Origin: a virus
Taxonomy: Duplodnaviria; Caudoviricetes
Length of the DNA: 58,494 nt
Virus record (IMG/VR): IMGVR_UViG_3300032163_000016
Coordinates: 1-58,494 of that record
Strand: one strand, 5' to 3'
Shown here: one piece after another, positions 6,143-44,737 of the stretch
Position numbering within the stretch: position 1 is the first letter of the stretch
Layout of the letters: the number at the start of each line of letters is the position of its first letter
The notes under the pieces: generated by a model
What the model saw: only the letters and a program-made list of their open reading frames with translations
Told to the model about the DNA's origin: nothing
Databases searched by the model: none
Position numbers and translations under genes: made by a program

Positions 6143-9100
6143 AACAGTACGTCAGTCAGATATTGATACTTTATTCGTGCAGGAGCAGCACCCGCGAGAA
6201 AAGACTGTCTCTCTGTCGGATATTAACGAAATGTTCTCACGGCAAAAAAAGACTGTGTCTCTGTCGGATATTGACGCGATGTTTTCACCGCAAGCCATTC
6301 AGGGGCCGATTCAACCGCCCGAATTTGATACTGTCCCTGCGGCAGTGACAAAAGTGGAACCGATTGTCCTTCCAGAGAAGCCAGAGGAACGCAAACGAGC
6401 TGGATTGGGAGTCCCGTCGTATGTCGAACCGGGGAAAGAAATCTATGAGCGTGCACCGAGTTTGGAAGAGCCGGAGAAGAAAGTCGGTGTATTCCAGATG
6501 CCGGAAGTCGAGGTTACGGCTCCGAGAAGGGAAGCGCGATTAACCCCAGAAGAGCAAGCCCGCGTCAGCCCAATGCAACTTGAGCAATACCGCCGCGAGG
6601 CGCCGCCCAGCATCACAGAACCCACAACCGAGTCAGAACTAGCCTACGAATCTTATCGTCAGGAACTTGAGAAATCTCTTGGAAGGAAGCTGCCAGAGGC
6701 AAAGAATCTCGCAGAAGCCGAAAAGGTTCTTGCGCAGATGGGGTCAAGGGACAGGTGGCTTTTGGCTGCCCCCTTGTATTCCGAGGTAGCAAAGCGCGCA
6801 CCGTTCATCGGCGGGATCTTCGCTGGAATTGAGGAATCCGCAAAGGCAGCCACCGAGCCAGACGTTTTGTCTAAAGCACTCAAGTTCGTAAAGGGAACGG
6901 GTGAAGCAGCTCTTGGGGTAGTGATCGCGCATGCCGCCGCATCGCCGTTGATTCAGGGATTTGAACTCTCAGCCCAGACTCAAATGGACATTGGCGAGCC
7001 AGTGCGTGAGGTTGGAAAAACGGTGGGTGAAAAGTCGGCGGAGGCTCTCGGATTTTCAAGTCGGGCGAAAGAACTCAGCGGTGAACTCGGTGGGATGATA
7101 ACAGAGTTGGGCACTTGGATACTGCTTGCAAAAGCCCCAAGTCTATTCGGCAGGATCAAGTCGGGCAAGGCGACGCCCCAAGAAATAAAACAGGCGGTTG
7201 AGGAGATTCGCAAAACCAATGCCGAGGAAATTCGCCAGATCAAGGATGAGAAACTGAGAAAGAAGGTTGAGGAAGTCGCACAACAGATGGAAGAAGTCAC
7301 TCGGATAGGGATTCGCACTGAGGAGCAGCGCGCAAGAGAAGGGATCATTCCTCGCCCAGCCGAAGAGAAAATTCCCCAGATAGCGGCGGAAATTCAACCA
7401 CCGAGAATCGAAACTCCTGTAACTGAGCCGCAGGTGCAGAAGAAACGACTCACCGAAGAAGCCATTGAGACAGGTCAGACATTCAATCTTGATCAAGCCC
7501 GCGCCCGATGGGAAGAAAGGAAGGGGATCGAGAAGCAAGCAATTGAGAGGGGAGAACCGAAGAGCCGTGAGCAGGCAGATGCGCTAATGAAATTGGGTCT
7601 TGAATCGCAGCGTGCCCGCGAAGAAGTAGAAGGTTTCATTGCCGAGCAGAGAAGGATTCTGAAGTCCAAGATGACAGGCAAAGAAGAACCGCTTGAGCAC
7701 AAGGCGTATACGCGCGGACAGATTGAGGAGAAGCTGAACGAAATCGCGAAATGGCAAAGGGTTAAGCAGTATCCCGGGAGGTTGCCGCCGGAACAAGAAT
7801 TGGCTAGGCTAGAGCCATTGCCGCCTGAAGTGACACTGGAAAAACCATCTGCCGAGGTCCCAGCAAAGGATAAATACGCACCCGTTCGCGATTTGATTGA
7901 GGAAAACGCAAGGAAAGACCCAGAGCGGTTTCCGGTGAACATCGGGGAGCGACTATTCGACGACATTCAGAAAGCCATTGAGCAAAAGGATTACGCCAGA
8001 TTGAGGGATATGGTTCATCCGATGAACCCGGTGTGGCGCGCATACTTCCAGCGGATCACAGGGAAACAACTTCCACAGACGGTCGGTGGTTCTGAGACAG
8101 CGGCTAAAGAGATTGTTGGAACAGGGGGGATGGAGACGTTTGAGGCGGCACGAAAGGCGGGCGAGGAAAGGCGGGCAGGCGAGCATATCCAATTCATTGC
8201 AAATCGTCTATCACAGCAAGGGTATCGCAATCCAGATGGTACGACGATCACCGCGAAAGAACGGATCGACCAAGCCATCGCAAGCGGTCAGACGGAACTG
8301 ACAAGTCACCAGAGGGGCGCAACAAAACAGTATTTCCTAACCAGGCCAGGAGAAGGAAGTGGCCCAGTAATCGTAGGGGCCGATCAGATTGAGTATGCGA
8401 GAGCAACGACCAAGAAAGTCACCCCCGAAAAGCCAGTTTCACCAATTGGTGAACAGGGACGGATAACTGGAACAAAGCCAGAAAAGTATAAAAACGCCAG
8501 AGACTTTGCTGAGACACTTGTAGGCCGACTTGGGCAATATAGCAAGTTGACAAGCGGATATGCAAACGAGGGCTTTGAACTATTCGATGAAAACAGATTT
8601 TTTGACAGACTTGGGCGTGAGTTTAAGTTGACGAGAGAAGAAATCAAGTCAATCTTTCCGGTAGAGAGGACGGAACCGGTATTTGAGGGTAGCGGGGGAT
8701 TGATGAAGCGCCCATCGAAAGAAGATCTCGCCGAGTTCTATAATCGCGCAATCAAGGAAAAACCTTCTCCCGCCCCCAAGCCCCCAGAGATGATGACGAG
8801 GGAACAATCTGATTTTCTCGAAGCGTATCCAGAACTTGTTGATATAGTCAAAAGAGCGAAGGTCAAACAGGCGGACATGCTTGCGAATCCAATCTATGAG
8901 AAGGCTGAAGAAATCGAGGGGACATCGAGAGCTGGGTTTGGTCTGAAACTGAGTACTATCTTTGGTAAGCAGAAACCACTACAGAACTTTATTGATCTCG
9001 CCGAGAAGTACGGGAAGAAAGTCGAAGTGCCAGAAGAGAAAGGGGTTGCAGGCATACTGGGTCGACCCGAGAAATTCCGTCAACTCGCAGATCAGATGCA

Positions 9101-12100
9101 AGGCCAGATTGACGAGCGACGGCGTGAAATGACGCAAAACCCAACACCGAAGCGGATGAAGGAATATCGTAGTCGAGTGATTGAGGGTGACGATCTTGAA
9201 CGCGCGCAGCAGGCACTCCGAACTTTGGCGGATGCTCACGAACGCGGAACGGTTCCCCCGATATTGAGAGAGCTCAAGAGCAAGTCAGAAGTTCTGCCGT
9301 TAGTCAGAAAGGGCACAACAGGCGGGGGTGGGTACTACGATGTGATCGCCTCAATGGAGTACAAGGACACGAGTCCACAAGGAAAAGCACTTCAAGATTT
9401 GATGGAGGCCAAGCCGGAGTTAAGAGTTGCGGATGTTGAGAAGCAGAAGGCTCAGAAACTCGCGCAGATGGAGGCCGAGGTTCAGTTCCGACCACTGCCA
9501 GGATTTTTTCCAACGCCGAAGCCGCTTGTGCGCAAGATGATCGAGGCCGCCGACATTGAGGAAGGTCAAAAGATTCTCGAACCATCCGCAGGGAAGGGCG
9601 ATATTCTTGATGTTCTCAAGGAGGAAAAGCCCGAAGCCACAGATGTAAAAGCGGTAGAGCTGATGAGTCCCTTGGTGAACATCCTTGAAGCCAAGGGATA
9701 CGATGTCACCAGCAAGGACTTCCTAGAGTACAAGGAACCCGCCGATAAAATCTTGATGAACCCGCCATTCGAGAAAGGTCAAGACATAGACCACGTTCGA
9801 CACGCGTACGACCTGCTGAATCCCGGTGGCCGCGTAGTCGCAATTGTGTCGGAGGGGTCATTCTCTCGCTCAGACAAAAAAGCAACTGGATTCCGCGAGT
9901 GGTTGGATGAAGTTGATGGGAGGTCTGAAAAGATAGAACGTGGGGCATTTACTGGCAAAGAGGCATTCCGACAAACGGGTGTGGCCTCAAGGATGGTTGT
10001 GATTGACAAGCCCGCCGAGGCGAAGCCAGAAATCGCGCCGATCCGCGAAGAGGCAGTTGCAGGGTTGCCGCAGTTGAAAACCGCAGAAGAAATTCCTACC
10101 TTAGAACCAATGAAACCCCCAAGGGGGCCGGGCAAGCAACCTACCGAGATCAAAACCCCACAGCCCGAAGGTAGGAAGTTCAAAAACTGGTTTGCCGATT
10201 CAAAGATTGTGGATAAATCTGGCAACCCCTTAGTAGTATATCATGGGACAGGAGCAGATGTTAAGTCGTTCGACCCGCGTTTTCAGGGACTTGGAACCCA
10301 GTCCGAACTTGCGCAAAAGGGTATTTTTTTTACAAACTCAAAAGCGGCAGCGCAAACGTATGCCGACCGAGCACCAAGTAGAGAATTTTTAGAGTCACTT
10401 CCGGGAAGCAAGAAAGTGTCGGAAGTCCAATACGCGCTGCAAGATCAAATGAGTAAGGAACTTTCCGATTATCATGATTCATTTTTGAAAACCCATAAGA
10501 TCACTGAACATCAGTTAAGCGAGAACGAAGTTCTCTACAAGAAGTACAGTGAGGCTTATGATAAGATCGGCCAAAAGTACGAAACTCAAATTCACGCCTT
10601 ACAAGATGATTTCTTTAAGGTACATCCAAAACGTGAAGCGGTAGCGGTACCACGAATCGTTTCTGCCCATCTAAGAATTAGACAACCAGAAATCATAGAT
10701 GCGCGTGGAGCGGTGATTACAGACATCGAGATAGAATCAATAGTTGACAAAGCATTACGTGATAAACGAGATGGTGTTGTGATTCGTAACGTGATTGATG
10801 TCTTTGGGGAAGAATCTTTGGTTTCGGATGTTTACATCGCCTTTTCGCCAGAGCAAGTAAGAATTATTTCCCCTAACCTCTCCCGCGCCCCTGAAGGTGG
10901 GGCGCAAGTTGTACCCGCGTTAAAACCCACCGAAGTTCCCTCCGAAAAGCCACTCCGCCCCACCGGAACCGAGGGCAAGAAACTCGCGATGGAGTTGCTG
11001 CCGACCGCCGCCTATTTATCCGTTGATGCCCTGCCAGTAGATGATGACACAAAGGAAAAGCTCAAGATTGCTTTTGGTGCGCTCGCGATTGCGGGGTTAG
11101 GACTCGCCGCCAGTAAACGCGTAAAGGACTTGAGTAAAGAATTCCGCAATGCGGCATTTAGCAGAGCGATGCGTGGTGAGATCAAACCGACCGAACTTGA
11201 GGCCGACGTGCGAAAACGCGTGACGGATTTCTTCAAATCTGAAGAGTCAAAAAGTCTCAGCATTGAAGAAAAGAAGGAACTCATCCGCGCACACGGGATG
11301 GAGCCGTTCAGAGCAGAAGCGAAGAGAGCGGCTACCGAGATCAACAAAGCACTAAGCGAGGAAGTCCCAGTTCCAGAGCACCAGAAGGGAAGTCTATCCA
11401 GCCAGATTGCGGCAAAGAACGAAAAAACGGAAAGAAAAAAGCCACTAGCATCTCGGATCAATCAAAAGATCGCCGAGTATAGGCTGGATGCGCAACGAGA
11501 CGGACTGCGAGGAATTGAGTTGGTAGACTATGTTCGTGGTCGAGTAAACGAGTATGTGAAGACCGAGAAGCCGACAGGATTCACCGAAAAGCAACGAGAA
11601 ATGATTGGTCGGAAGACGGGCACGCTAGAACTGAAAAACGCGATTAAAAGACTTCAAGAGACAGAACAAAGAACGCAGAGAATTGCCCAAGCACGGGATC
11701 GCGCTGCGGATATAGCGATAGAGACACAGAGGCGGCTAATCAATAACTACGCAAAACCAGAGGAAGCGAAGAAGATCATCACCAGGGTTGATGAACTCGC
11801 AGATCACTTCCGTGACATACTGCCAGAGTCAAACTACAAAACTTTGAAGGGTGGCCTTATGAGTCGCAACGCAGTTTTCACACGCGACTTCGGACCCGCC
11901 GGTGCGGAACTGCAACTTCTCTTCCTTGACGGAAACATCAAAGAACGAACGCTAAGGGATGTCTTCATCGATCAGGTTTCGCAGCACAGGGAAATCTTTG
12001 AGGAGATCAATAGAAACAAATCTTCCCTAGCGAAAAAGGTTGAAATCGGTAGAGAGGTCAAAGATGCGTTAAACGACCGAGAACATGCACAGACCTATCT

Positions 12101-13919
12101 CACCAGTGAAACCGCGAGGCAAGTATACGAGACGTACAAAGATGTTTTCGATAAGGCCGAGACACTAATTCGAGCGAAGGGATACACAGTTGAGGATAAT
12201 TACTTCCCGCGTTTGAAGCAGGCTAAATCATTCGAGCAGAGAATGGAGGAACTTGAGAACCTAACTGGGCAGGATTTCCACAAAGCAAGACAAATGAACG
12301 CACCCATAAAGGGCATAGTCTCTGAGAAGAGTCCACGCCTGAAAGAACGCACGGCAGAGGAAGAGCAATTTCCGACTCGATTTGATGTCGAGAACATTTT
12401 ACCTCAGTACCTGAACAGCATCATCCGCGAACTGTCCTATGGTGATGCGATGAAGTACTTGAAGAACGACTTCACGCATCTAATTCCAGAACCCTTATTC
12501 CAGAGAGCACCATTCCAGCGCGTCGCGGATCTTGTGAAGGGGAACCTCCGGCCAGATGTTGGCCGAGGATTTTTCTGGAAGGCAGAATCGTACATCTCTA
12601 ATAACATCATTCAGTCTGCCGTCGAATTCAGTCTGAACAACAACGTGATGAACTTAACACAAACGGACTTTACACGCCTGTATATGGGTCCAGAAGGAAC
12701 CCGACTTGCAAACCAAATTTGGAAGCAACGTAAAACCCTCACGGGCAAACTCAAGGATGCTATACAGATTGCCTCGGAAGAGGAGTCACCGTACATCGAG
12801 CGGTCGCCAGCAGAACTGAAGCGAAGAAAGATTCTCCAACGATCCGTCGAGAAGTACGGACCACAACGGATGGGTGAACGTCACAACTGGCGTTGGTCTG
12901 AATTGGGCCTGATTGTAGATTCTGCCGTAAAGAACCCCAAGTTCTCAGAGATTTACAAAAGGGTGAATGACCCAGTCAAGGCCATGAACGAGTTGTTTGA
13001 GAAGGATCAGACAGCGTATCAAACGGCAATCCGAAATGCACAAGTACTTACAATGAAGACCCAAGTAAGTCAGGATATTGCGGCGAGGCCGGAGTATTGG
13101 GATACGCGAGCGATAAAGATGTTCTTGCGGCTTAAATCGTTCAAGTTTCGAGCCATAGAAGTCGTAGCCGAGGCTTTCAAGAAGCAAGAAGGTGCATACG
13201 GCGTTAGGAATCAAACCATCTGGTCTCGTGGTGTTTTTAGTGAAGCCACGAAACCAGGCGAGGTACTTTTGCAGATCGAGGACTATCGTGCCAGGGTTGA
13301 CCGAATTTTGAAAGATCCAGATGCCGTTAAACTCCTTGACGTGAAAAGCAAGCAGACGATCTCGGACTTTAGGGACTACCTCGGTGGTCAAGAGAGAGAA
13401 TTAAACGCGATCATCAAGCAGATGGAACCCCTCTCTATGAATCCCAAATCCGAAATAGGTCGAATACGAACCTTCAAAATCCTAGCTAAGTACTATCCCA
13501 AGATTGTGATGACATCAATTCTCACAACCTACCTAAGCAACCTTATTGATAATGTTGTGGGAACTCCCGACCAGGATGAGGACAAACTCCATGCCTACGC
13601 GGTGCAGAGAATGTTCTTGGACCTGAATCCGTCGCCGTTTTACGGAGTGAACCCACTTGAGTGGTTGAAGCCAATCATTATTCCTGGACGATGGGTCGCG
13701 AAATATGGTCTTTCTAAACGGACGATTGTACATGATGCGGTTCAGTACGGAATCGCCGGTCTAATCCCGTTTGGTGGGATGGTTGATAGATGGGCGGGCG
13801 GCATCGCGACAAAGACAATTACAAACCTGATTGTGCCACCGAAAAAGAAGCTCGGAACCGCGCCTCCGATAATGGGCAAACGTAACGCCATTGAGCAACT
13901 GAGTGGACTAGCGAAGTAG
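6120..13919 (+). CDS. Giant polyvalent ejection protein with N6-adenine MTase and ART-PolyVal-like ADP-ribosyltransferase domains
   Basis: MTase motifs GFFPTP...ILEPSAGKG...ILMNPPF (~9500-10010). ART-PolyVal-like motifs FKNWFADSKIVDKSGNPLVVYHGT...GIFFT...DGVVIRNVID...YIAFSPEQVR (~10180-10865). The C-terminus is helical. Confidence 0.8.
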   Translation: MAIPLPNRTVRQSDIDTLFVQEQHPREKTVSLSDINEMFSRQKKTVSLSDIDAMFSPQAIQGPIQPPEFDTVPAAVTKVEPIVLPEKPEERKRAGLGVPSYVEPGKEIYERAPSLEEPEKKVGVFQMPEVEVTAPRREARLTPEEQARVSPMQLEQYRREAPPSITEPTTESELAYESYRQELEKSLGRKLPEAKNLAEAEKVLAQMGSRDRWLLAAPLYSEVAKRAPFIGGIFAGIEESAKAATEPDVLSKALKFVKGTGEAALGVVIAHAAASPLIQGFELSAQTQMDIGEPVREVGKTVGEKSAEALGFSSRAKELSGELGGMITELGTWILLAKAPSLFGRIKSGKATPQEIKQAVEEIRKTNAEEIRQIKDEKLRKKVEEVAQQMEEVTRIGIRTEEQRAREGIIPRPAEEKIPQIAAEIQPPRIETPVTEPQVQKKRLTEEAIETGQTFNLDQARARWEERKGIEKQAIERGEPKSREQADALMKLGLESQRAREEVEGFIAEQRRILKSKMTGKEEPLEHKAYTRGQIEEKLNEIAKWQRVKQYPGRLPPEQELARLEPLPPEVTLEKPSAEVPAKDKYAPVRDLIEENARKDPERFPVNIGERLFDDIQKAIEQKDYARLRDMVHPMNPVWRAYFQRITGKQLPQTVGGSETAAKEIVGTGGMETFEAARKAGEERRAGEHIQFIANRLSQQGYRNPDGTTITAKERIDQAIASGQTELTSHQRGATKQYFLTRPGEGSGPVIVGADQIEYARATTKKVTPEKPVSPIGEQGRITGTKPEKYKNARDFAETLVGRLGQYSKLTSGYANEGFELFDENRFFDRLGREFKLTREEIKSIFPVERTEPVFEGSGGLMKRPSKEDLAEFYNRAIKEKPSPAPKPPEMMTREQSDFLEAYPELVDIVKRAKVKQADMLANPIYEKAEEIEGTSRAGFGLKLSTIFGKQKPLQNFIDLAEKYGKKVEVPEEKGVAGILGRPEKFRQLADQMQGQIDERRREMTQNPTPKRMKEYRSRVIEGDDLERAQQALRTLADAHERGTVPPILRELKSKSEVLPLVRKGTTGGGGYYDVIASMEYKDTSPQGKALQDLMEAKPELRVADVEKQKAQKLAQMEAEVQFRPLPGFFPTPKPLVRKMIEAADIEEGQKILEPSAGKGDILDVLKEEKPEATDVKAVELMSPLVNILEAKGYDVTSKDFLEYKEPADKILMNPPFEKGQDIDHVRHAYDLLNPGGRVVAIVSEGSFSRSDKKATGFREWLDEVDGRSEKIERGAFTGKEAFRQTGVASRMVVIDKPAEAKPEIAPIREEAVAGLPQLKTAEEIPTLEPMKPPRGPGKQPTEIKTPQPEGRKFKNWFADSKIVDKSGNPLVVYHGTGADVKSFDPRFQGLGTQSELAQKGIFFTNSKAAAQTYADRAPSREFLESLPGSKKVSEVQYALQDQMSKELSDYHDSFLKTHKITEHQLSENEVLYKKYSEAYDKIGQKYETQIHALQDDFFKVHPKREAVAVPRIVSAHLRIRQPEIIDARGAVITDIEIESIVDKALRDKRDGVVIRNVIDVFGEESLVSDVYIAFSPEQVRIISPNLSRAPEGGAQVVPALKPTEVPSEKPLRPTGTEGKKLAMELLPTAAYLSVDALPVDDDTKEKLKIAFGALAIAGLGLAASKRVKDLSKEFRNAAFSRAMRGEIKPTELEADVRKRVTDFFKSEESKSLSIEEKKELIRAHGMEPFRAEAKRAATEINKALSEEVPVPEHQKGSLSSQIAAKNEKTERKKPLASRINQKIAEYRLDAQRDGLRGIELVDYVRGRVNEYVKTEKPTGFTEKQREMIGRKTGTLELKNAIKRLQETEQRTQRIAQARDRAADIAIETQRRLINNYAKPEEAKKIITRVDELADHFRDILPESNYKTLKGGLMSRNAVFTRDFGPAGAELQLLFLDGNIKERTLRDVFIDQVSQHREIFEEINRNKSSLAKKVEIGREVKDALNDREHAQTYLTSETARQVYETYKDVFDKAETLIRAKGYTVEDNYFPRLKQAKSFEQRMEELENLTGQDFHKARQMNAPIKGIVSEKSPRLKERTAEEEQFPTRFDVENILPQYLNSIIRELSYGDAMKYLKNDFTHLIPEPLFQRAPFQRVADLVKGNLRPDVGRGFFWKAESYISNNIIQSAVEFSLNNNVMNLTQTDFTRLYMGPEGTRLANQIWKQRKTLTGKLKDAIQIASEEESPYIERSPAELKRRKILQRSVEKYGPQRMGERHNWRWSELGLIVDSAVKNPKFSEIYKRVNDPVKAMNELFEKDQTAYQTAIRNAQVLTMKTQVSQDIAARPEYWDTRAIKMFLRLKSFKFRAIEVVAEAFKKQEGAYGVRNQTIWSRGVFSEATKPGEVLLQIEDYRARVDRILKDPDAVKLLDVKSKQTISDFRDYLGGQERELNAIIKQMEPLSMNPKSEIGRIRTFKILAKYYPKIVMTSILTTYLSNLIDNVVGTPDQDEDKLHAYAVQRMFLDLNPSPFYGVNPLEWLKPIIIPGRWVAKYGLSKRTIVHDAVQYGIAGLIPFGGMVDRWAGGIATKTITNLIVPPKKKLGTAPPIMGKRNAIEQLSGLAK

Positions 13920-24121: not shown

Positions 24122-24793
24122 ATGTGCTTTCTTGAGCCACGGGTACTGCGAATTACGACAGAGCAAAATCGCATACCAGACGCAGTTCTGGTTGACATTC
24201 TGTGTGTGTATGAATTCGCTAAGAGGGAAGACATTCCAGCACTGCCCAATGAGTTGATTTGCAAGCGAAACGGTGACTTCTGGACAACTTGGACAAAGGT
24301 TTTAGACATACGAGACAACAACAAGTCTATTCCACGCAAGGAGGACATCATGAACTCAGACCAAATTGAAACAAGGTGGCAGAGGAGTTACGAAGGCATT
24401 GTTGCCGACCGCCGTGATTTCAACTTGAAGGTGAGGGAAGTATTGGAACTCGCGAGGTCAATCTACGGATATGGCGAATATGACCGCGCCGTTCAGGAAA
24501 TAAAAAATCGGCGGTTGACGATCATCGGACGGGAGAAGCGCAAGCACTTCCCGCTCAAGAAATATCAGATGCTTTTCGGTAGGCAGAAGGGCAACTGCGG
24601 TATCTGTAGACTAGAGCTTGAGGTGGCAGGACCGCCGAATGTGATCGACCATAAAGACGTCAATCGGACGAAGGGATACAACTCCGACAGCAACTTGCAA
24701 CTCGTTCATAAGGACTGTAATGCGGAGAAGGCGGCCAAAAGCATCCCGCAGCAAGCGAAGCATTACGGGGAGACAATGATGGAGTTGATATGA
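24122..24793 (+). CDS. HNH endonuclease
   Basis: CGIC...IDHKD...NLQLVHKDCNAEK; a second strong SD with in-frame ATG lies at 24350. Confidence 0.8.
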   Translation: MCFLEPRVLRITTEQNRIPDAVLVDILCVYEFAKREDIPALPNELICKRNGDFWTTWTKVLDIRDNNKSIPRKEDIMNSDQIETRWQRSYEGIVADRRDFNLKVREVLELARSIYGYGEYDRAVQEIKNRRLTIIGREKRKHFPLKKYQMLFGRQKGNCGICRLELEVAGPPNVIDHKDVNRTKGYNSDSNLQLVHKDCNAEKAAKSIPQQAKHYGETMMELI

Positions 24794-25056
24794 ACCGCAC
24801 CCTGAAATTTTTTGCGCGCCCGAATCCGGTCTGGGGATTCATCTTACTGATGCTGATTGTTCTGGCGGCGTGGCTGATAGCGGGACTAATCATAGAGAAT
24901 CCCATAGTTGCCCGGGTCGCCGTTGCCGCGTTCTTGATTTTCCCAGTGGCATTTGTGGTGAGGGGTCTCGCCCTAACGTGGTACGAAGTCGAAGAGAAGG
25001 TGCGCGGATTTTTTGAAGCCATCAATGCAGAATCAACGAAGAGGGACTGCGACTAA
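24790..25056 (+). CDS. Two-TM membrane protein
   Basis: Two hydrophobic helices; ATGA overlap with the upstream gene. Confidence 0.65.
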   Translation: MNRTLKFFARPNPVWGFILLMLIVLAAWLIAGLIIENPIVARVAVAAFLIFPVAFVVRGLALTWYEVEEKVRGFFEAINAESTKRDCD

Positions 25057-26969
25057 TGAAGTTTCTGGACTGGAAATCTTGCTATAAAGAATCTGGCAAA
25101 AATCTCTGGGTCCCGTTAGCGTACACCCACCCAGCGAAGATGTCTGTCGGATTATGCCGCAAAATCTTCGCGTTTATGGAAGAGAAGGGGATGCTGAAGA
25201 AGGGGAATGTGGTCTGCGATCCCTTTGCGGGAATCTTCACGACGGGACTAATCGGAGCAATGAAGGGGTATCGGGTTGTGGGAGTTGAACTCGAAGAGAA
25301 GTTCTGCAAGTTGTCCAAGCAGAACATCGAGAAGAACCATAAGATTCTTGAGAGGCTTGGTGTGCCCATTCCTGAAATTTATCAAGCAGATAGTAGAAAA
25401 CTTTCAGAGGTGATCGCATTTCGCCAAGCCGTTGATCTCTTCGGCCTTCTGCTACATCCGCTCGGCGATGTCGTAGTCCAGTTTCGCCCAGACGAATTTC
25501 ATCCGACGCGCCAACTTGTTCTTGAAGATCATCAGACCCAGTTCCTTGCCCGATGCGTACAAAAAGTGGAAGGAATTGTGACAAGTCCACCATTTTCAAT
25601 GGCGAATTGCCAACCGGTTAGTTCGACGGTATTAGGATCGGGACAAGGAGTGCGGAGTAAATATAAGGAAATTGGTAAACGACCCGATGATAATTTGGGT
25701 GGAACCAAAGGACAGATTGCAATTTTGAAGGAAGGGTCCATCTCCGCCGTTCTGACAAGCCCGCCGTACGCAGATACTCCGACAAGCGCACAAAATGTTG
25801 GGAACACAATCAAGAAGAATTGGGGCAAGGGCAGAAGGCTTGTTGATGACAAAGAACCAAACTATGGAATGGAAGTTGGTCAAATCGGTTCTCTCAAAGA
25901 CAAAGGCATCGACGCCGTTATCACCTCGCCGCCCTATGCTGAGATACGACAGGATGGAGGTTCTACGAGACCCGGGTACACCGGCATGACGCCTTACAGC
26001 GGTGAACCCCGAAATGCTTGGCGAACGACTCGCAATCAAGAGAACATTGGCAATGTGCCCGAGGGCGATGTTGATAGTGTGATAGGAGGAACAACATGCG
26101 ATACTGTGAAGATTGTGGGAAATCAGTTGGTCCCCAAAGTAGATGGTGCAAGAAATGTTATCGATACCACATCGGGAGGCCGGGAGTCCCCAAGACAGAA
26201 GAACATAAGCGGAAGATCGGACTTGGACATCTCAACATCGCAGATCCGTTGCACTACGCCGACAAAAACAAGAATTGGAAAGGTGGAGATGAGAGGTGGA
26301 GGGGATTCGCGTGGAGAATCCAAAGACGTAAAGCACTCGCCCACGACAACTATCAATGCCGAAAATGTGGAGCACGAGAGTATCTCGTTGTCCATCACAA
26401 GAAAGACAAAACCCAAACAGGAGGGGAGTGGGACAACTCGATTGAAAACCTTGAAACACTCTGTCGAACCTGTCACAACCAGCATCACAGCAAGGACGAA
26501 AGAATCTACAGAATTAAATGCAAAGTTTGTGGCAACTATTACACTAGTAGAAGCGCGGTTCCAGGAGCCTGCTCCCGTAAGTGCAGGACAAAACTCAACA
26601 CAGCCAAGCACAGAAAATGGGTTCAAAAGAAACGAGCCGCCGACATATTGGTCGGAGATGGCCAAAATATATCTTGAATGCTGGAAGATTTTGAAACCTA
26701 ACGGGTATATGGCAATCACAGTTAAGGACTTTGTACGCGCAAAAAAGCGCGTACCCCTATGCGACAATACCGTGAAGTTGCTTGAGCATCTTGGATTCAA
26801 AGTCGAATACCGTGCCCGTGCTTGGTTGACTGAGGATTTAGGAACCCCCGATGCCTTCACGGGAAGGACCAAGAGCAAACAAAGGAAGTCATTTTTCAGA
26901 AGGCTGGCAGAAAGTAAAGGCAGTCCGAGGATAGATTGGGAGGAGGTTCTGATATGCCAGAAGATTTAA
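25056..26969 (+). CDS. Amino (N4C/N6A) DNA methyltransferase with triplicated SPP(Y/F) modules and two in-frame insertions
   Basis: HPAKM, DPFAGIFTTG and GVELE; TSPPF/TSPPY/TSPPY; C-terminal YWSEMAKIYLECWKILKPNG. Confidence 0.8.
   Translation: MKFLDWKSCYKESGKNLWVPLAYTHPAKMSVGLCRKIFAFMEEKGMLKKGNVVCDPFAGIFTTGLIGAMKGYRVVGVELEEKFCKLSKQNIEKNHKILERLGVPIPEIYQADSRKLSEVIAFRQAVDLFGLLLHPLGDVVVQFRPDEFHPTRQLVLEDHQTQFLARCVQKVEGIVTSPPFSMANCQPVSSTVLGSGQGVRSKYKEIGKRPDDNLGGTKGQIAILKEGSISAVLTSPPYADTPTSAQNVGNTIKKNWGKGRRLVDDKEPNYGMEVGQIGSLKDKGIDAVITSPPYAEIRQDGGSTRPGYTGMTPYSGEPRNAWRTTRNQENIGNVPEGDVDSVIGGTTCDTVKIVGNQLVPKVDGARNVIDTTSGGRESPRQKNISGRSDLDISTSQIRCTTPTKTRIGKVEMRGGGDSRGESKDVKHSPTTTINAENVEHESISLSITRKTKPKQEGSGTTRLKTLKHSVEPVTTSITARTKESTELNAKFVATITLVEARFQEPAPVSAGQNSTQPSTENGFKRNEPPTYWSEMAKIYLECWKILKPNGYMAITVKDFVRAKKRVPLCDNTVKLLEHLGFKVEYRARAWLTEDLGTPDAFTGRTKSKQRKSFFRRLAESKGSPRIDWEEVLICQKI
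25431..25562 (-). repeat. 132-bp inverted repeat, copy 2 (antisense exonuclease fragment inside the MTase gene)
   Basis: 129/132 identical to the reverse complement of 22406-22537. Confidence 0.95.
26096..26677 (+). CDS. HNH homing endonuclease nested in an alternative frame of the MTase
   Basis: AGGAGG SD at 26084-26089; Zn fingers; NUMOD3-like KTEEHKRKI; NWKGG; CRKC...VHH...NSIENLETLCRTCH. Confidence 0.85.
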   Translation: MRYCEDCGKSVGPQSRWCKKCYRYHIGRPGVPKTEEHKRKIGLGHLNIADPLHYADKNKNWKGGDERWRGFAWRIQRRKALAHDNYQCRKCGAREYLVVHHKKDKTQTGGEWDNSIENLETLCRTCHNQHHSKDERIYRIKCKVCGNYYTSRSAVPGACSRKCRTKLNTAKHRKWVQKKRAADILVGDGQNIS

Positions 26970-27308
26970 TTTCGCTCTACGAATCAGGGAAAAGTGTGCG
27001 AAACATCTCAGAACTCAAATGAGTACGGGTACAAGTCACCTATTGGCAAAGGCAACCGTCGTGACCAATACTGGTGGAATGTTTCACCAGAAGGATTACG
27101 GTGGTTGTTGCCGCAGGTTCTTCCGTACCTGCTAGTAAAGAAAAAACACGCGGAGATTGTTCTCGAACTTCTGAGCAAAAACAGCAGAAGCAAGAGACTT
27201 CCGAATGAAAGAAAGATGGAGCTGCGAGATGAAATCCGACGACTTAATATCAAAGGACGTAAACAATCTGAGGAAGAAGTGATCTTCGTACAGAAGGCAA
27301 CAGATTAG
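26954..27308 (+). pseudogene. Degenerate LAGLIDADG-type homing endonuclease remnant
   Basis: A short ORF MPEDLISLYESGKSVRNISELK* (HTH-like, GGAGG SD) is followed in another frame by YWWNVS...LLPQVLPYLLVKKKHAEIVLE, like a LAGLIDADG C-terminal half. Confidence 0.55.
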
Positions 27309-27491
27309 ATGTCCCTCGCTCAGATCATATTACTGGGTCTCAATTCGCGCAAGACTCCGCCAGTCAGGATAAAACAATGCGACGGCTGCGGCAGATGGCG
27401 ACCAATAAGTTGGTTCTATGACCGCGACAAGAAGAAGGCGAAGGTTCGGTGCAAGAAATGCTTATCGGGAATCCAAAAGAAGAAGAACTGA
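27309..27491 (+). CDS. Small Zn-finger protein
   Basis: CDGC...CKKC. Confidence 0.55.
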   Translation: MSLAQIILLGLNSRKTPPVRIKQCDGCGRWRPISWFYDRDKKKAKVRCKKCLSGIQKKKN

Positions 27492-27847
27492 TGACCGAAA
27501 CCACGATAAAGGTATTTGAGTATCTCATCGACAGGGAAGGGTTTGTGCCAGCGATTGACTTGGCGAAAGCACTTGGGTACAAGAACGAGCGCCCATTGCG
27601 CGCCATAGGAACGACCATAGGTGTATTAGACAGGGCGAGCCGTGAGATATTTGAAGACAGGGGTTGGGTACTCATCACAAGGATGCGTGAGCCCTCGGGC
27701 GTGAAACTTAGTAAAGACCCCGAAGAAATCGCTGCCGCAAAGGAACAGTGGGTAAAATGGTTCTGGCCGATAAAGAAGAACAAGATTGATTTCTACGAAA
27801 GATGCGAACGCACGTTAAGAAGCAAGCAGATGGAGTTGGCCGTATGA
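27491..27847 (+). CDS. Winged-HTH-like protein
   Basis: VFEYLIDREGFVPAIDLAKALG; TGATG coupling with the upstream gene. Confidence 0.55.
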   Translation: MTETTIKVFEYLIDREGFVPAIDLAKALGYKNERPLRAIGTTIGVLDRASREIFEDRGWVLITRMREPSGVKLSKDPEEIAAAKEQWVKWFWPIKKNKIDFYERCERTLRSKQMELAV

Positions 27848-27949
27848 GCGTCATTTTGCCGATTGTTAGGCGTTCGATGCTCTATTGATTTCGCGGCAAC
27901 GGCCAAAGTGTCGGGTAGTAGACTCCTATACATTAGGAGGGCACAAATT

Positions 27950-28201
27950 ATGGCATACAAAGGAAGTTCGCTCGGTCGACGTTCGCAAGGACGGACACAT
28001 AATCCAACCTCGATAGAAAAACAAGGTGCACCGTTGCGTAGGATTGTTGAGGTGATGGAATCATCTAAGAATATCTTCCAACCCTCATACGTCAGATTGG
28101 ATTGCGGACATACAGCATATACTTACTCACGGTTCAACGTGAGGGCGCGGTGCGCCGAATGCAAAGTGGCCGTTGCCGCTACAAAAAGCACTGACGCCTA
28201 A
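27950..28201 (+). CDS. Cassette gene, small Zn-binding hypothetical protein
   Basis: AGGAGG SD; LDCGH...CAEC; the stop codon lies within the CCTAAC box. Confidence 0.7.
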   Translation: MAYKGSSLGRRSQGRTHNPTSIEKQGAPLRRIVEVMESSKNIFQPSYVRLDCGHTAYTYSRFNVRARCAECKVAVAATKSTDA

Positions 28202-28337
28202 CGTTCGCGGCAAAACGCAGCGAGCGAACCAACTGACAGAAAGCTAAAAACAATGAGCGAGTTGAGCGACAAAACCGAATTAAACCAGTGGAGCGGAGTT
28301 TTGCCGATTGTTATGTGCCGTGCCCGCAGAAGGATTT

Positions 28338-28973
28338 ATGATTGAACCATATTACTCTGAGGATGGGATCACGTTGTATTGTGCAAGAGCGGAGGATGTT
28401 TTGCCGCAACTATCTGAGAAAAGCGTGGACTTTGGATTTGCAGACCCACCCTATGGAATTGAGAAAGCAGAGTGGGATTGTCGGTATCCGGAATGGTGGT
28501 TTGAGCGGGAGCTATTGCGCGTATGTACGCGGGGTGTGGCGGTGACTCCGGGGCAGGATAACATTGCGACTTGCATTATGAGAATGGGGAATGATTACAG
28601 AGGAATTCATTTTGCGAGGAATTTGAACGGAATGACGTTTGGCGGGATAGGTTTCGAGAACTTTATTGCTGCGGTAATAGGAGGAGAAGCACGGCGCGGG
28701 ATGAGTTACTTTGATTTTGTGGTGCGGGGAGAGAAGCCCAAACATCCTTCGCCAAAACCGACCGAGTATATGGCGAAATTGCTTGAGAGATTCACGGAAG
28801 AGAAAGAAATTGTGATAGATTGCTTTGTGGGCAGCGGTACTACTCTTGTTGCGGCAAAACGTCTTGGGCGTAAGGCGGTTGGGATTGAGATGAGCGAGGC
28901 ATACTGCAAAATAGCAGTACAAAGGTTGAGTCAAAAAGAACTCTTCGGAATTGAGAACGGGCATGGCATATAA
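28338..28973 (+). CDS. Cassette gene, beta-class N6A/N4C DNA methyltransferase
   Basis: ADPPY, HPSPKP, DCFVGSGTT and GIE; the stop codon lies within the ATAAC box. Confidence 0.9.
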   Translation: MIEPYYSEDGITLYCARAEDVLPQLSEKSVDFGFADPPYGIEKAEWDCRYPEWWFERELLRVCTRGVAVTPGQDNIATCIMRMGNDYRGIHFARNLNGMTFGGIGFENFIAAVIGGEARRGMSYFDFVVRGEKPKHPSPKPTEYMAKLLERFTEEKEIVIDCFVGSGTTLVAAKRLGRKAVGIEMSEAYCKIAVQRLSQKELFGIENGHGI

Positions 28974-29025
28974 CTACGGTAACTACGCACTTTTTGTTCG
29001 TAGTACTGTCCTATGGACGAAATGA
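28970..29025 (+). repeat. 56-bp array-end element, copy 1
   Basis: 55/56 identical to 30844-30899; contains two small hairpins. Confidence 0.9.
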
Positions 29026-29046
29026 GACAAAAAAAGGAGTAACAGG

Positions 29047-29457
29047 ATGACCGCCGAAGAAGAAAAACCTGACGGACAAATCATGGAAGATGTAACCGGT
29101 GCGTTTGCTTCTCACCGCAAGGTAGCAGGCACTCAAGAATTCAAAATGCAACTTGACCAGATCGGTATTGAGTCGGGTTTATATCCAGATCAAGCGATGA
29201 AACAAACCTCGGCAATACTGGAACTTCTTCAACGAGGCAATGTAGGGAGCCAATCCGCTAAAGATGCGGCGAGCGAAGAACTCAAGAACGCGAAAACCGA
29301 ACTTGCCAAGTGGCAAACAATGTGCGAAGGATTTGTCGGGGTATCGGTAGTGGCAGACATTTTTGTGAACGAGCCACATACACCGCATGTTTTTGGACTC
29401 TACGTGAAGAATCTCATTGAGCAAATTCGCGAACTTAAGCGAGCCACCAAGAAATAA
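29047..29457 (+). CDS. Hypothetical protein
   Basis: AAGGAG SD; 136 aa. Confidence 0.65.
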   Translation: MTAEEEKPDGQIMEDVTGAFASHRKVAGTQEFKMQLDQIGIESGLYPDQAMKQTSAILELLQRGNVGSQSAKDAASEELKNAKTELAKWQTMCEGFVGVSVVADIFVNEPHTPHVFGLYVKNLIEQIRELKRATKK

Positions 29458-29635
29458 AGCATTGTGGCTAATATATCGGGCAAGCACGCAGTAACCGTTG
29501 AATTGTGGAAGTCGCTGCTATAAACCACACCGTTGAAGGCAGCAACCAACGGTCTTAGGATTCACGTTATTAGCGTGCTTGCCATTGTTATCTGTTCGGC
29601 ACTCAATAATGACGCGGTTGCGCCGAAAGGAATTT

Positions 29636-29941
29636 ATGGGACTCAACATCGTTGTCACAATACCGAAGGAGCGGGTGAAGCAAGTTGAAGCAGAGGAAAC
29701 TGAAGTAGCGAAACGGATCAAGACGGGAGAGAAGGACATCGTCTATTGGTGGAGTATTCCGAGTGAGCCAGTCAAAAGAGTCGAGCGAATCTACTTCGTC
29801 TGGAATGGGGCGATCCGAGCCTGGCATGAAATTATAGAAATCATTCACGAGACCAGTGTACGGGTCTATATGAAGCCAGAGATACACATGCTCAAAGAAC
29901 CAATACCGATGAAAGGATTTCGGGGTTGGCAATACTTCTGA
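29636..29941 (+). CDS. Cassette gene, PUA/ASCH-like protein
   Basis: RIYFVWNGAIRAW and a C-terminal PIPMKGFRGWQY, resembling ASCH-family ends. Confidence 0.5.
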   Translation: MGLNIVVTIPKERVKQVEAEETEVAKRIKTGEKDIVYWWSIPSEPVKRVERIYFVWNGAIRAWHEIIEIIHETSVRVYMKPEIHMLKEPIPMKGFRGWQYF

Positions 29942-30078
29942 TTCACAACGCGGCGCAACCGCTAAAGAGAAGTGCTGACAGATAACGTTCAAGTAAGTCC
30001 GACGTTTGGGCGTACCAATATCTAAGACTGAATCGACCAAATGTGCAACATCACACCAAAAAGAATGGAGCGAACTCT

Positions 30079-30393
30079 ATGGAAAATCAAAATAACCTGA
30101 GCGACGTAAACATTGTTAGGTGTTCGTTGCGGCTACAGACGGAATACCAGTACATAAAGTTTGAAGAGCTACCCAATCTTGCAACTCCTAAAACGAAACA
30201 TTGGTGCTGCATAAACAAACGAGTCGACTCGGTAGTTGGTTGGGTTTGTTGGGACAATGGTTGGCGGCAATATGTATTCACCCCAAAATTTAAATGTATC
30301 TTCAGCACGGGATGTCTCAAAGATGTCATACACTTTATCGAACAGGTGATGAGCGAACATCGGCAGAAAGCAATGAGCCGCAATGACACCTAA
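30079..30393 (+). CDS. Cassette gene, hypothetical; starts in the linker and reads through GTT
   Basis: GGAG SD and ATG 30079 lie in the linker; the stop codon lies within the CCTAAC box. Confidence 0.65.
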   Translation: MENQNNLSDVNIVRCSLRLQTEYQYIKFEELPNLATPKTKHWCCINKRVDSVVGWVCWDNGWRQYVFTPKFKCIFSTGCLKDVIHFIEQVMSEHRQKAMSRNDT

Positions 30394-30625
30394 CGTCTGG
30401 CAAAACACCGACGTTGCTAAAAAAAGTAGCGGGGCTGAATGAACCATACACAACATGAACTTGCGACACAATTTTGGATGCGATATTTTTGGAATTCTAC
30501 CGATAGTCCAGAGAAAAGCGATTTCTTCAACCTTTGTGAGTCACTGTGCGAGGCAACCAATCGCAATGTAGGGAGCGAAGCGACCGACGGTGTTTTGCCT
30601 GTTATGTGCAGTTTTTTGAAACAGC

Positions 30626-30847
30626 ATGAAGACAAAATTAACTCAAAAACAGAAAGATGACTTTGCTGACATTATTGCCAGCTATTCGATAATCAGTGTA
30701 AAAATGAACGGCAAGGAGATTTGGGACTGTACTGGGAAAGAAACTAAAGATTCCATCAAGTTAGGGATTACTGCCGAACACAAAAGAATATATGTGAGGG
30801 GAATCGTTAGCGAGATACTGGACTATGTTTCAAAAAATTGCACATAA
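30626..30847 (+). CDS. Cassette gene, hypothetical
   Basis: 73 aa; the stop codon lies within the CATAAC box. Confidence 0.6.
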   Translation: MKTKLTQKQKDDFADIIASYSIISVKMNGKEIWDCTGKETKDSIKLGITAEHKRIYVRGIVSEILDYVSKNCT

Positions 30848-30899
30848 CTACGGTAACTACGCACTTTTTGTTTGTAGTACTGTCCTATGGACGAAATGA
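30844..30899 (+). repeat. 56-bp array-end element, copy 2
   Basis: Matches 28970-29025 with one mismatch. Confidence 0.9.
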
Positions 30900-30924
30900 A
30901 TCAAAAGTGAAAGGAGCCTGAGAA

Positions 30925-31545
30925 TTGGCAGAATCTTTTCGGGAAATGCCAAAAGCCCAAGCAGTTCGGTCCTGGACTCCGAGTGTCCGCAAAGAAGCCT
31001 TTGAGTGGTGTGTGAAGGCAAACGGGAAGGCTTGCGTCTCGGTGAAGCACGACGAAGGCCGTGCATTCCGTCAATGGGACATTCACCACAAGGATGGGGA
31101 CAGGACTCACAACCCGCCCGACGGGTCAAATTGGGCACTGATGTGTCACCCCTGCAATGTGAGAGAGTCGCCGCACGGCCCGCCCATGCACGATAGATTC
31201 AGCACTCACCTGCACTTCAAGGAGTCACGTACATACCAACGCACACGCGAGCGGCTAGCAGTGAAAACTCTTGCAATGCAGAGGAATGTGACTGCTGAGC
31301 CGATCGTACGCGAATTCGCCAGAGAGAAGATCAAAGAGAAGGGCGAGGTCGGGCTGGAGGATCTGATTGACGCGGCGGCGGAAGAGGTTTTAAGGCGGAC
31401 CAAAAGTAGGTGCAGTATAACGCAAGAACGCGTCCGGTTGTATTTGGACAAGATGTTGAATCCTTTGACGGGAGAGTATGAGATTTTTGAGGATGAGGAT
31501 GGAGTGGAATGGATAAGGAGACGGCAAGATGATTCGACGCATTGA
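30925..31545 (+). CDS. HNH-domain protein
   Basis: IHHKDGDRTHN...NWALMCHPCN; AAGGAG SD. Confidence 0.75.
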   Translation: MAESFREMPKAQAVRSWTPSVRKEAFEWCVKANGKACVSVKHDEGRAFRQWDIHHKDGDRTHNPPDGSNWALMCHPCNVRESPHGPPMHDRFSTHLHFKESRTYQRTRERLAVKTLAMQRNVTAEPIVREFAREKIKEKGEVGLEDLIDAAAEEVLRRTKSRCSITQERVRLYLDKMLNPLTGEYEIFEDEDGVEWIRRRQDDSTH

Positions 31546-31816
31546 CAATAGTCAGAGAGAAAAGAAAAGAGTGAAGAAAGGCGAACTGAACGGAGAAATC
31601 GAACGATTGAAAACCACCATCAGCCAGTTGCAGAAAGGAATAATCGACGATCCGGCAGAATCCGAGCGCCGCAAGCATTGCGTGGACTGCGGGCACAAGA
31701 AAAACGACAAGCGAAGCGCGCAGGTCGCGGAAGAAAAAGCAAAACCAAGGCGGGAATCCGAGATGAGCCAAACCAGGCGCAGCTACGAGAAGATGATGGT
31801 TGGATACAACAGGTAG
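31529..31816 (+). CDS. Hypothetical protein
   Basis: AGGAG SD; coiled coil plus CxxC. Confidence 0.45.
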   Translation: MIRRIDNSQREKKRVKKGELNGEIERLKTTISQLQKGIIDDPAESERRKHCVDCGHKKNDKRSAQVAEEKAKPRRESEMSQTRRSYEKMMVGYNR

Positions 31817-39231: not shown

Positions 39232-39567
39232 ATGGTCGAGACTGAACAAGAAAGGTGGATAAGGGAGTACGGCCCGAACGCCCCGTGGAAATCGAAAGAG
39301 GACAGTGGGCTTTACGAAGACCTCAGCGATCTCAACGCGGAGTCAGACGAATTTGGCATCATAAGCCAATTCCCAATGCATAGGCGGTATCATGGGAAAT
39401 CGAGGTACGCGGATGTATCGGTAAGGTTGGAAGGTTCGCAGAAATGCCAGGTATTCGGGCACGCGCTGATGGGATTGGAGCCGACTAGCAAATGCAGAGA
39501 ATGTAATAGGACGAGGGAAGACCTAGAGGCAACGGGCGTGATTTGGGATGGAATTAGACCGATATGA
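39232..39567 (+). CDS. Hypothetical protein
   Basis: ORF between TerL and the HNH gene; contains CREC. Confidence 0.5.
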   Translation: MVETEQERWIREYGPNAPWKSKEDSGLYEDLSDLNAESDEFGIISQFPMHRRYHGKSRYADVSVRLEGSQKCQVFGHALMGLEPTSKCRECNRTREDLEATGVIWDGIRPI

Positions 39568-40028
39568 GAGAGATTCCGCTTTCACGGGATATGGTCGCAT
39601 TGGTTGACGACGAGGACTACGCGGATTTGTCGCAATTCAAATGGCATGCCAACAAGGATGGTAATAGGTTTTATGTCCAACGCACTATGCGTCGCGGTGG
39701 TAAATGGTGGGCAGAACCCATGCACCGTCGTATCCTGAATGCCAAGCGGGGCGAAAAAGTCGATCACGTCAATCATAACGGTCTGGATTGCCAAAGAGAG
39801 AACATTAGAATCTGCACGGATAGTCAGAATCAGGGGAACCGAAAGAAAAACATCAACGGTTCAAGTCGTTTTAAGGGTGTTAATTGGCACAAACGGTACA
39901 AGGTATGGCAAGCGAGGATTCAAGGACGGTATCTTGGCTGCTTTACGGATGAGGAACTTGCCGCCCGCGCTTACGATGCAGCGGCTAAAAAGCTGTTCGG
40001 TGAATTTGCGTTGGTGAATTTTCAATGA
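39564..40028 (+). CDS. HNH-AP2 homing endonuclease
   Basis: VDDEDY, MHRRIL, DHVNHNGLDCQRENIR, SSRFKGV and AARAYDAAA. Confidence 0.92.
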   Translation: MREIPLSRDMVALVDDEDYADLSQFKWHANKDGNRFYVQRTMRRGGKWWAEPMHRRILNAKRGEKVDHVNHNGLDCQRENIRICTDSQNQGNRKKNINGSSRFKGVNWHKRYKVWQARIQGRYLGCFTDEELAARAYDAAAKKLFGEFALVNFQ

Positions 40029-44266: not shown

Positions 44267-44737
44267 ATGAAAGAAATCCCGCTATCAAAAGGGTTGTTTG
44301 CGATTGTGGACGATGAGGATTACGCGGGGTTGATGAAGGTTAAATGGTACGTTATGGCTGGGAAATGCTATGCTGGACGCCACATTAAACGGGCTGGCAA
44401 ACAGACGACCGAATACATGCACCGACGCATCTTGCAGGCCCAACTGGGAGAAGAAATTGACCATGTAAATCACAATGGTCTTGACAATCGCAGAGGGAAT
44501 ATTAGAGTTTGTACACGATCTCAAAACCATGGGAACACAAAGAAATTTAGGGGATCAAGCAATTTCAAGGGTGTTCACTGGAATAAAGACAGGCACTCTT
44601 GGCACGCGCAGATTCGATACAAGGGAAAGCAAATCTTCCTCGGACGGTTTACGGACGGTGAAAGCGCCGCTCGCGCCTATGATGAGGCAGCGAGACAATA
44701 CTTTGGTGAATTCGCAGAACTGAATTTCCGAAATTAA
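44267..44737 (+). CDS. HNH-AP2 homing endonuclease (paralogue of 39564..40028)
   Basis: VDDEDY, MHRRIL, DHVNHNGLDNRRGNIR, FKGV and AARAYDEAA. Confidence 0.92.
   Translation: MKEIPLSKGLFAIVDDEDYAGLMKVKWYVMAGKCYAGRHIKRAGKQTTEYMHRRILQAQLGEEIDHVNHNGLDNRRGNIRVCTRSQNHGNTKKFRGSSNFKGVHWNKDRHSWHAQIRYKGKQIFLGRFTDGESAARAYDEAARQYFGEFAELNFRN

Follow-up and report, generated by a model that had tools for sequence, protein, structure and literature searches.

An integron-type cassette array in an uncultivated sediment phage: an attC family common to a bacterial array, and the short reading frames that cross its sites

The genome of an uncultivated sediment phage (Caudoviricetes; IMG/VR record IMGVR_UViG_3300032163_000016) carries an array of small gene cassettes separated by attC recombination sites. 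The whole record, referred to below as the window, was analysed; it is 58,494 bases long and complete, with direct terminal repeats at its ends. The attC family of this phage-borne array is common to an array found in a bacterium, and the structure of the array is well supported. The stretch at 27.85-30.9 kb is probably best described as five integron-type cassettes, forming a cluster of attC sites lacking integron integrases (CALIN) in a complete phage that has no recombinase, and the short open reading frames (ORFs) running across its sites would mostly be by-products of the repeated sequence.

Five linkers, termed A to E from left to right, delimit the array. They lie on the + strand, as do the short ORFs described below and every sizeable gene of the window. 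Linker A (27856..27871), at the left end of the array, is the right half of an attC only, composed of an L' arm, a 4-nt spacer, and the R' box GTTAGGC. Site B (28196..28316), delineated by arm-pair search and by its fold, extends from the R'' box GCCTAAC through the L'' and L' arms to the R' box GTTATGT, with 111 nt from TAA to GTT. In site E (30388..30607; R'' ACCTAAC, R' GTTATGT), this distance reaches 210 nt, and arms of 15 nt stand 171 nt apart. Site C (29466..29593) displays a degenerate R'' box ending in TAAT, an R' box GTTATCT, and perfect 11-nt arms (29479-29489 and 29573-29583). Site D (29978..30121) is also degenerate and forms no clean hairpin; it is recognized by a half-box match, its R'' box ending at 29986 and its R' box, GTTAGGT, lying at 30115. 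The inverse core sites nnnTAAC...GTTAnnn are thus present in B, D, and E, the left one reading TAAT in C, while A holds only R'. The inverted-repeat search returned arm pairs of 14, 11, and 15 nt for B, C, and E (repeats I5, I8, and I1), and, when B and E are folded as RNA, the TAAC-ended box pairs with the GTTA box at the base. The purine/pyrimidine rule of R boxes (RYYYAAC/GTTRRRY) is loosely kept, as exemplified by GTTATGT. Over the ~80 sites of the family, L'' and L' form ~10 different complementary arm pairs, located on one strand per array, a variety that is not an independent covariation test since the scanner requires arm complementarity. The loops measure from 45 to >200 nt, and attCs of up to 279 nt occur in the family. 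Extrahelical bases and an unpaired spacer in the center determine the recombining strand of an attC site; here, the central spacers are unequal (5-6 nt vs 4 nt), and the breakpoints conflict, those of the phage being at the GTT-side box and those of the MAG (see below) mostly at the TAAC-side box. An earlier, looser version of the scanner produced 10.35 hits per shuffle of all sequences on both strands; for the final version, the sole control is provided by the empty opposite strands.

The boxes of successive sites match each other. The R' box of one site complements the R'' box of the next in perfect runs of 9, 9, 9, and 10 nt (A-B, C-D, D-E, and E to the second copy of a repeat termed D5), and B matches the first D5 copy at 9/10 positions. 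The two boxes of one and the same site reach runs of only 4 nt, and among random GTTA/TAAC pairs taken from the window, 30 out of 20000 (a rate of 0.0015) reach 9 nt. Such matching between successive sites is expected of former circular cassettes that were cut inside the R box, and it constitutes the strongest argument for genuine cassette junctions. The D5 repeat is 70 nt long, holds an 8-bp bulged hairpin, and occurs as copy 1 at 28963..29032 and copy 2 at 30837..30906, the latter being the right end of the array (93% identity between the two). Copy 1 is a short hairpin element with an R''-like box at its start and no GTT box. The possibility that D5 is an unrelated promoter or terminator element was considered and rejected, as its first 9-10 nt turned out to be an R'' box complementary to the R' box before it. 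The repeat is probably the remnant of a short attC and has no GTT box, which would explain why a methyltransferase gene and a gene for a 136-aa protein now sit in one cassette.

Sites of the same family are found outside this phage. A 19-base pattern from the right arm detected full sites at 13/17 metagenome loci, while L027, L031, L033, and L036 were set aside as chance matches within genes. In the genome collection, 7/11 loci belong to one metagenome-assembled genome (MAG) labelled uncultured Bacteroidetes bacterium, and L044-L047 are again chance matches within genes. According to the scanner, this MAG harbors 31 and 14 attCs on two contigs, all on one strand in each of them. Phage and MAG have only the site ends in common (94% over ~35 nt), and no cassette content; site A is 94% identical to the MAG attC ends, and the R''-L'' end of attC B displays the same 94% to the MAG attCs. 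Within the MAG, a 284-nt cassette is present four times together with its attC, and among eight MAG ORFs scanned, two have Pfam domains. In IMG/VR, a 16-mer hit 12 loci, two of them true sites and ten chance matches, and a second pattern led to the same two contigs. Together with one metagenome locus of the same sequence, these contigs represent a related phage with three linkers. Finally, a single attC of this type precedes co-oriented MT-A70 and N6_N4 methyltransferase genes on a metagenome contig of 2152 nt (L028), which constitutes a second phage-like context.

A gene encoding a 388-aa tyrosine recombinase is located at the end of the larger MAG array and points into it (genome G006, contig C60, 74161-75327; minus strand of locus L054, 1195-2361). 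A GTTA junction lies ~70 nt past its stop codon, at the array end. The best relative of known structure is VchIntIA (E 4.8e-41), which is matched in two pieces: the MAG enzyme has none of the ~40 residues found where VchIntIA carries the integron-specific insert, and it possesses an extra N-terminal part of ~110 residues. It scores 224 bits against the NF040815 profile ('tyrosine recombinase/integron integrase'), above the cut-off of 220; with TIGR02249, it reaches 218 bits for a cut-off of 265 and falls outside IntI by this profile. In the phage, no match to Phage_integrase or Resolvase domains is found at E <= 1 across the genome; the array is therefore not a complete integron, in which an intI gene and an attI site stand beside the cassettes.

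Natural variation of the array was also observed. Contigs of three other sediment runs were compared with positions 27400-31200; among the runs listed for this region, none is catalogued as RNA. A contig of run X3 (323 nt, depth 2.7) joins 27861 to 30112, the 9 letters ATTGTTAGG fitting both sides. In this variant, site A is directly followed by cassette 4, cassettes 1-3 being skipped, and the joint is located inside the GTT box. Furthermore, two database proteins (P0005 and P0006) are 98% identical to residues 1-58 of the short ORF crossing site E (ORF E, see below) and are unrelated to it past the R' box. Both observations place the breaks at the GTT box, which is where a first-pass annotation of this DNA, made from the sequence, had set the crossover. 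Its description of the linkers as attC-like elements bounding cassettes holds as well: the half-box matches, the family, and the X3 variant establish them as genuine attC-type sites. Another record from run X3 (record 12) carries the 136-aa gene followed by a B-like attC, ~85% identical to B, and is uninformative on polarity. A joint from run X2 (30612>30837), the shorter side of which has 23 letters, was not relied on.

It could also be envisaged that the hairpins act at the RNA level only, in processing, stability, or termination, in which case the attC likeness would be a relic and the arrays would vary through recombination between the repeats, based on homology or microhomology. The phage lacks a recombinase and does possess a Cas4-like exonuclease and several HNH endonucleases, sites A, C, and D and the D5 repeats are degenerate, and the identity at the X3 joint (9 nt, or 17 nt with one mismatch) might be used by slippage or annealing. 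However, the R'/R'' half-boxes differ from cassette to cassette, a feature explained by circles cut at the R box and not by RNA signals. A promoter/terminator scan remained at chance level (5 terminator-like sites vs 5.5 expected), and an Rfam scan returned no family at E <= 1. A role limited to RNA appears highly improbable.

Breakpoints can also be read from the MAG copies. Nine pairs have the core and the right flank only in common and one pair the core and the left flank only, the TAAC-side box being mostly the boundary. Eight pairs have the same right flank with different cores, the break being at the GTTA box. Both R boxes therefore serve as breakpoints in the attC family. On the basis of the MAG, the crossover in the phage had first been placed at the TAAC-side box; in view of the X3 joint and of the two kinds of MAG breakpoints, this position is not regarded as firm. 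With breakpoints at both R boxes in duplicated cassettes of the MAG (contigs C60 and C51; loci L058-L061), the attC cores behave in part like independent modules.

All five sites of the window are crossed by a short ORF in which the GTT of the right-hand box is read as a codon (5/5), a register termed frame 0 here. ORF A (27844..27888), the ATG of which overlaps the stop of the upstream gene, encodes 14 aa, MSVILPIVRRSMLY followed by a stop; it crosses the GTT at 27865 and ends 62 nt before the ATG at 27950. ORF B (28253..28345) encodes 30 aa in frame 0, has no Shine-Dalgarno (SD) sequence, and ends with a TGA (28343-28345) overlapping the start of the methyltransferase gene (ATG 28338). ORF C (29533..29688; 51 aa, reading ...VLAIVIC...) is a weaker case, starting with a TTG, having neither an ATG nor an SD sequence, and ending 52 nt past the ATG at 29636. 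At site D, the ORF starting with the ATG at 30079 reads through the GTT and continues as the 104-aa cassette protein, to which it is fused. ORF E (30439..30660; 73 aa) is located in the loop of attC E, crosses the GTT at 30601 in frame 0, and overlaps the next gene, ending 35 nt past the ATG at 30626. Translation returns these five ORFs as the first-pass annotation had written them.

From these ORFs, a conserved frame across the crossover had been proposed: leader ORFs would be kept in one GTT frame, which would let passing ribosomes open the hairpin and would tie every newly arriving cassette to an upstream start, by coupling or by fusion. Such a device has a precedent in the ORF-11 and ORF-18 of attI1 and in short ORFs of attC sites, as described in PMC8876359. 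The proposal was to be checked on homologous linkers, a random frame at GTT counting against it, and this is how the frames turned out. On the coding strand of 74 homologous attCs, ATG-led ORFs cross the GTT in frames 0/1/2 in 8/12/13 cases; on the phage-equivalent strand of 76 homologous attCs, the values are 18/18/29 (4/9/21 for 49 MAG sites and 14/9/8 for 27 metagenome sites). The main cassette ORFs are distributed over frames 0/1/2 as 11/15/13 of 39. There is no conserved frame rule, and the statement that the frame is always the same is not established as one. Frames 0 and 1 contain no stop within the conserved L'-spacer-R' motif, and frame 2 meets a TAG wherever the box reads GTTAG; hence, only two to three frames are usable. 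Furthermore, B and E are not independent since they have the same box sequence.

The phage-context set comprises nine sites, namely the five of the window, the three of the related phage, and that of L028. Four of the nine have no ATG-led frame-0 ORF: site C, sites G1 and G2, leaving 2/3 linkers of the related phage with no ATG in frame 0, and L028, in which the crossing ATG-ORF is in frame 1. As for the genes that follow the sites, their start codon is in frame 1 with respect to the GTT in 6/8 phage cassettes (A, B, C, and E; L010 3013 and 3337), and in five of these six, the frame is open back to a TTG formed by the spacer and the G of GTT. This bias is absent from the bacterial cassettes, which show the 11/15/13 distribution given above.

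The ribosome-binding signals differ between the ORFs. The SD-like energies of the ORF starts are -5.9 (A), -5.6 (D), -5.5 (E), -0.1 (B), and +1.6 kcal/mol (C); those of A, D, and E are close to the median of the phage genes (-5.7) and lie within the top 17-20% of random ATGs, while B and C have no SD sequence. For the next genes, the values are -10.7 at 27950, -4.8 at 28338, -5.6 at 29636, and +0.4 kcal/mol at 30626, three out of four thus possessing an SD-like site of their own, and in RNA folds the hairpins leave the next start sites uncovered. The frame-0 stops fall at -62, +5, +52, and +35 nt relative to the next start, or the ORF is fused; a stop at the start is found only at B. Such scattered positions make up no coupling geometry. 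The TGA ending ORF B is located in the first codons of the methyltransferase gene itself, and it is also found in the related phage, the gene of which has no attC ahead of it. At the level of the peptides, the substitutions observed in ORF E are non-synonymous in 4/4 cases, and when the two paralogous linkers found in the related phage are compared, five codon differences alter the amino acid and one is silent; nothing in these sequences suggests selection on the crossing peptides.

The crossing short ORFs thus appear to be mostly by-products of the repeat, and the built-in expression device read into them by the first-pass annotation is not supported, given the scattered stops, the SD sites of the next genes, and the frames. 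Translational coupling is plausible in single cases only, at the B and E junctions: at B, because ORF B comes to its stop at the very beginning of the methyltransferase gene, and at E, because the next gene has no SD sequence (+0.4 kcal/mol). Besides these two overlaps and the five frame-0 ORFs out of five sites, an ORF of the related phage (G3), its start lying on the stop codon of the gene before it and its end 11 nt inside the following gene, is what leaders kept in frame would look like. As a general arrangement for all incoming cassettes, they remain rather unlikely.

Could some of the crossing ORFs, chiefly the 73-aa ORF E, be real small protein genes? The two database proteins sharing its residues 1-58 argue for it, as does its SD-like score, which is average for the phage genes. 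Moreover, run X3 contains the same 145 nt in another context, with a GGAGG seven letters before the ATG. Against this, ORF E belongs to no Pfam or PHROG family, all its observed substitutions are residue-changing, and past the R' box, the three versions have unrelated C-terminal parts, 15 to 64 residues in length. It also lies within the loop of a hairpin with 15-nt arms, and such long loops are common in the family. A protein-coding role of this kind is very unlikely.

Several observations weigh against a plain array of host cassettes crossed by fortuitous ORFs. An ATG-led frame-0 ORF is present in 5/9 phage-context sites, as leaders kept in frame would also predict, compared with 18/76 sites on the same strand and 8/74 on the coding strand; the difference from the same-strand background of 24% has a Fisher p of 0.056 and a binomial p of 0.039, and that from the coding-strand set a p of 0.004, all of them post hoc values, the frame having been picked after looking and relatedness being ignored. 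In B, in D, and in each of the three linkers from the related phage, no stop interrupts frame 0 over the entire site, compared with only 4/76 bacterial or metagenomic attCs on the same strand, the phage sites being shorter. The distance from TAA to GTT is a multiple of 3 in 5/7 phage attCs vs 20/76 elsewhere. The next genes with the weakest SD sequences (28338 and 30626) are those overlapped by short ORFs. Lastly, the polarity of the genes relative to the attC is opposite in phage and MAG, where the longer ORF of a cassette is on the opposite strand in 37/43 cases, and this the simple picture of host integron cassettes in a phage leaves unexplained.

These points could be accommodated by a strand-symmetric system of integron-like cassettes common to phage and host, with one attC family used in both polarities, which seems a doubtful proposition at present. 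The coding strand of the phage cassettes would then correspond to the antisense strand of the bacterial ones, with crossover at the opposite R box, an arrangement that is conceivable and yet improbable. Phage sites would, equally tentatively, be maintained at a small size, in register with the stop codon upstream of them, and open to ribosomes. In classical integron integrases, the insert reads the extrahelical bases; the recombinase beside the MAG array has no such insert, and both R boxes are MAG breakpoints, two features that fit into this scheme.

Under the favored reading, that of five CALIN cassettes, each cassette would consist of the TTA... half of an R' box, a gene usually provided with its own ribosome-binding site, and an attC hairpin, in which an R'' box, an L'' arm, a variable loop, an L' arm, and an R' box would follow each other; one of the five would be composed of two genes joined by a decayed site. 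A host recombinase of the IntI/XerA-like kind seen in the MAG would insert and remove cassettes at the GTT box. The outcome would be a swappable set of small accessory genes in the phage, a DNA methyltransferase included. The short ORFs over the GTT would be a consequence of a motif that is stop-free in two frames and of the mutual homology of the sites. Ribosomes may still pass through one or two of them, from ORF B into the methyltransferase gene and from ORF E into the gene having no SD sequence.

From left to right, the genes of the array are as follows. The cassette 1 gene (27950..28201) encodes 83 aa of no family, has a strong SD sequence (-10.7 kcal/mol), and is terminated by the TAA belonging to the R'' box in attC B. 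Upstream of it, a candidate left arm for site A is found at 27748-27760, within the upstream gene, with one mismatch to the complement of the right arm; it may be due to chance, as shuffles yield 3.8 such hits. Cassette 2 starts with the N6/N4 DNA methyltransferase gene (28338..28973; PF01555 at 4e-22, phrog_67 at 1e-38), the stop of which is provided by the TAA in an R''-like box, and its second gene (29047..29457) encodes the 136-aa protein of no family that is found beside a different attC in run X3. The cassette 3 gene (29636..29941) encodes ~101 aa with a weak match to DUF1489, below cut-off. The cassette 4 gene (30079..30393; 104 aa from ATG 30079) ends with the TAA contained in the R'' box of attC E. 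In relatives of this protein, the conserved core begins ~20 residues in, at a position where three relatives have a Met and the phage copy a Leu; for this reason, the ATG within site D may be a substitute for the original start, or else an error of annotation. The cassette 5 gene (30626..30847; 73 aa, no family, no SD sequence) likewise finishes with the TAA in an R''-like box. The TAA of an R'' box is the stop codon of four window genes and of one gene of the related phage.

Beyond the array, the window encodes terminase subunits, several HNH endonucleases, the Cas4-like exonuclease, and at least four DNA methyltransferases (Pfam, PHROG). Searched against GenBank phages, positions 26900-31600 gave no DNA-level match, and the terminase has only distant relatives there, below 34% identity. 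In IMG/VR, no match was returned for the upstream gene or for a 26-mer from the loop of attC E, and the terminase led to three loci, none of them informative on the array. HNH or endonuclease VII-like genes are plentiful (24122-27491, 30925-31545, 39564-40028, and 44267-44737), and several adjoin methyltransferase genes; the cassette array is located in a plastic region with homing-endonuclease-like genes. A single ORF of 2599 aa (6120-13919) displays a methyltransferase-like middle part (phrog_15406 and others, E down to 1e-73). Tandem repeats of 264 nt occupy positions 1-974 and 58034-58494, with 97-100% identity between their first copies. They sit within a long open frame running off both ends of the record, and the terminal repeat of the record lies inside this repetitive gene.

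A common family of recombination sites ties an uncultivated sediment phage to its likely host group. An accessory region of the phage, made of a methyltransferase gene and small genes of no assigned family, is built and varied as integron cassettes, and a variant of it has been caught in another sample. The opposite polarity in phage and bacterium, if true, bears on strand choice where the recombinase lacks the classical extra domain. The short ORFs over the attC junctions illustrate that reading such frames as a designed device needs a control set of homologous sites. What makes the array of interest is its connection with a host, the variant found in nature, and the unexplained polarity, and not the leader peptides.

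Among known systems, sedentary chromosomal integrons of the 'inverted integrase' group, e.g., that of Treponema denticola, have their integrase gene co-oriented with the cassettes. The MAG array resembles them in that its recombinase points into cassettes that are all on the same strand and have one homogeneous attC family. It departs from them by its recombinase, in which the ~40 residues of the VchIntIA insert are absent and which remains at 218 vs 265 bits with TIGR02249. In T4-type phages, promoter-stem-loop cassettes (PeSLs) are promoter-plus-terminator modules that recombine by homology. As in the phage array, they are intergenic hairpins in several copies that flank small accessory genes, occupy a plastic part of the genome, and are associated with gene shuffling. 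In contrast with PeSLs, the phage sites display integron R and L boxes and matched half-boxes that are specific to each cassette.

The leader mechanism is an already known integron idea, applied here to a phage array. According to the review PMC8876359, ORF-11, ORF-18, and ORF-17 span the attI1 crossover and, with short attC ORFs, aid translation of the next cassette by termination-reinitiation; these short ORFs are said there to stop the hairpin from blocking ribosomes. The sources described in that review for ORF-11-type leaders and for attC ORFs are Hanau-Bercot 2002 and Jacquier 2009, and a 2024 study (PMC11511950) reports that translation of the upstream cassette shapes array expression. 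The likeness lies in a short ORF placed over a recombination crossover or in a hairpin, for which a role in retaining ribosomes on the mRNA is proposed. As described, ORF-11 has a canonical SD sequence, and its stop codon is formed by positions 3-5 of GTTRRRY, a register corresponding to frame 2 here. In contrast, the phage ORFs read GTT as a frame-0 codon, their stops are scattered, and two have no SD sequence.

The closest counterparts are the phage CALINs of Qi et al. 2023 (PMC9892861), who describe such clusters in temperate and virulent phages, N6_N4 methyltransferase cassettes included. Arrays of attC sites, co-oriented small cassettes, the lack of an integron integrase, and N6_N4_Mtase cassettes are found on both sides of the comparison. 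Several of their phage CALIN attC sites were recombined by IntI1. Compared with the CALINs of that account, the array described here has an attC family tied to one bacterial MAG, a gene polarity relative to the attC that is opposite to that of this MAG, and a naturally occurring variant that lacks three cassettes.

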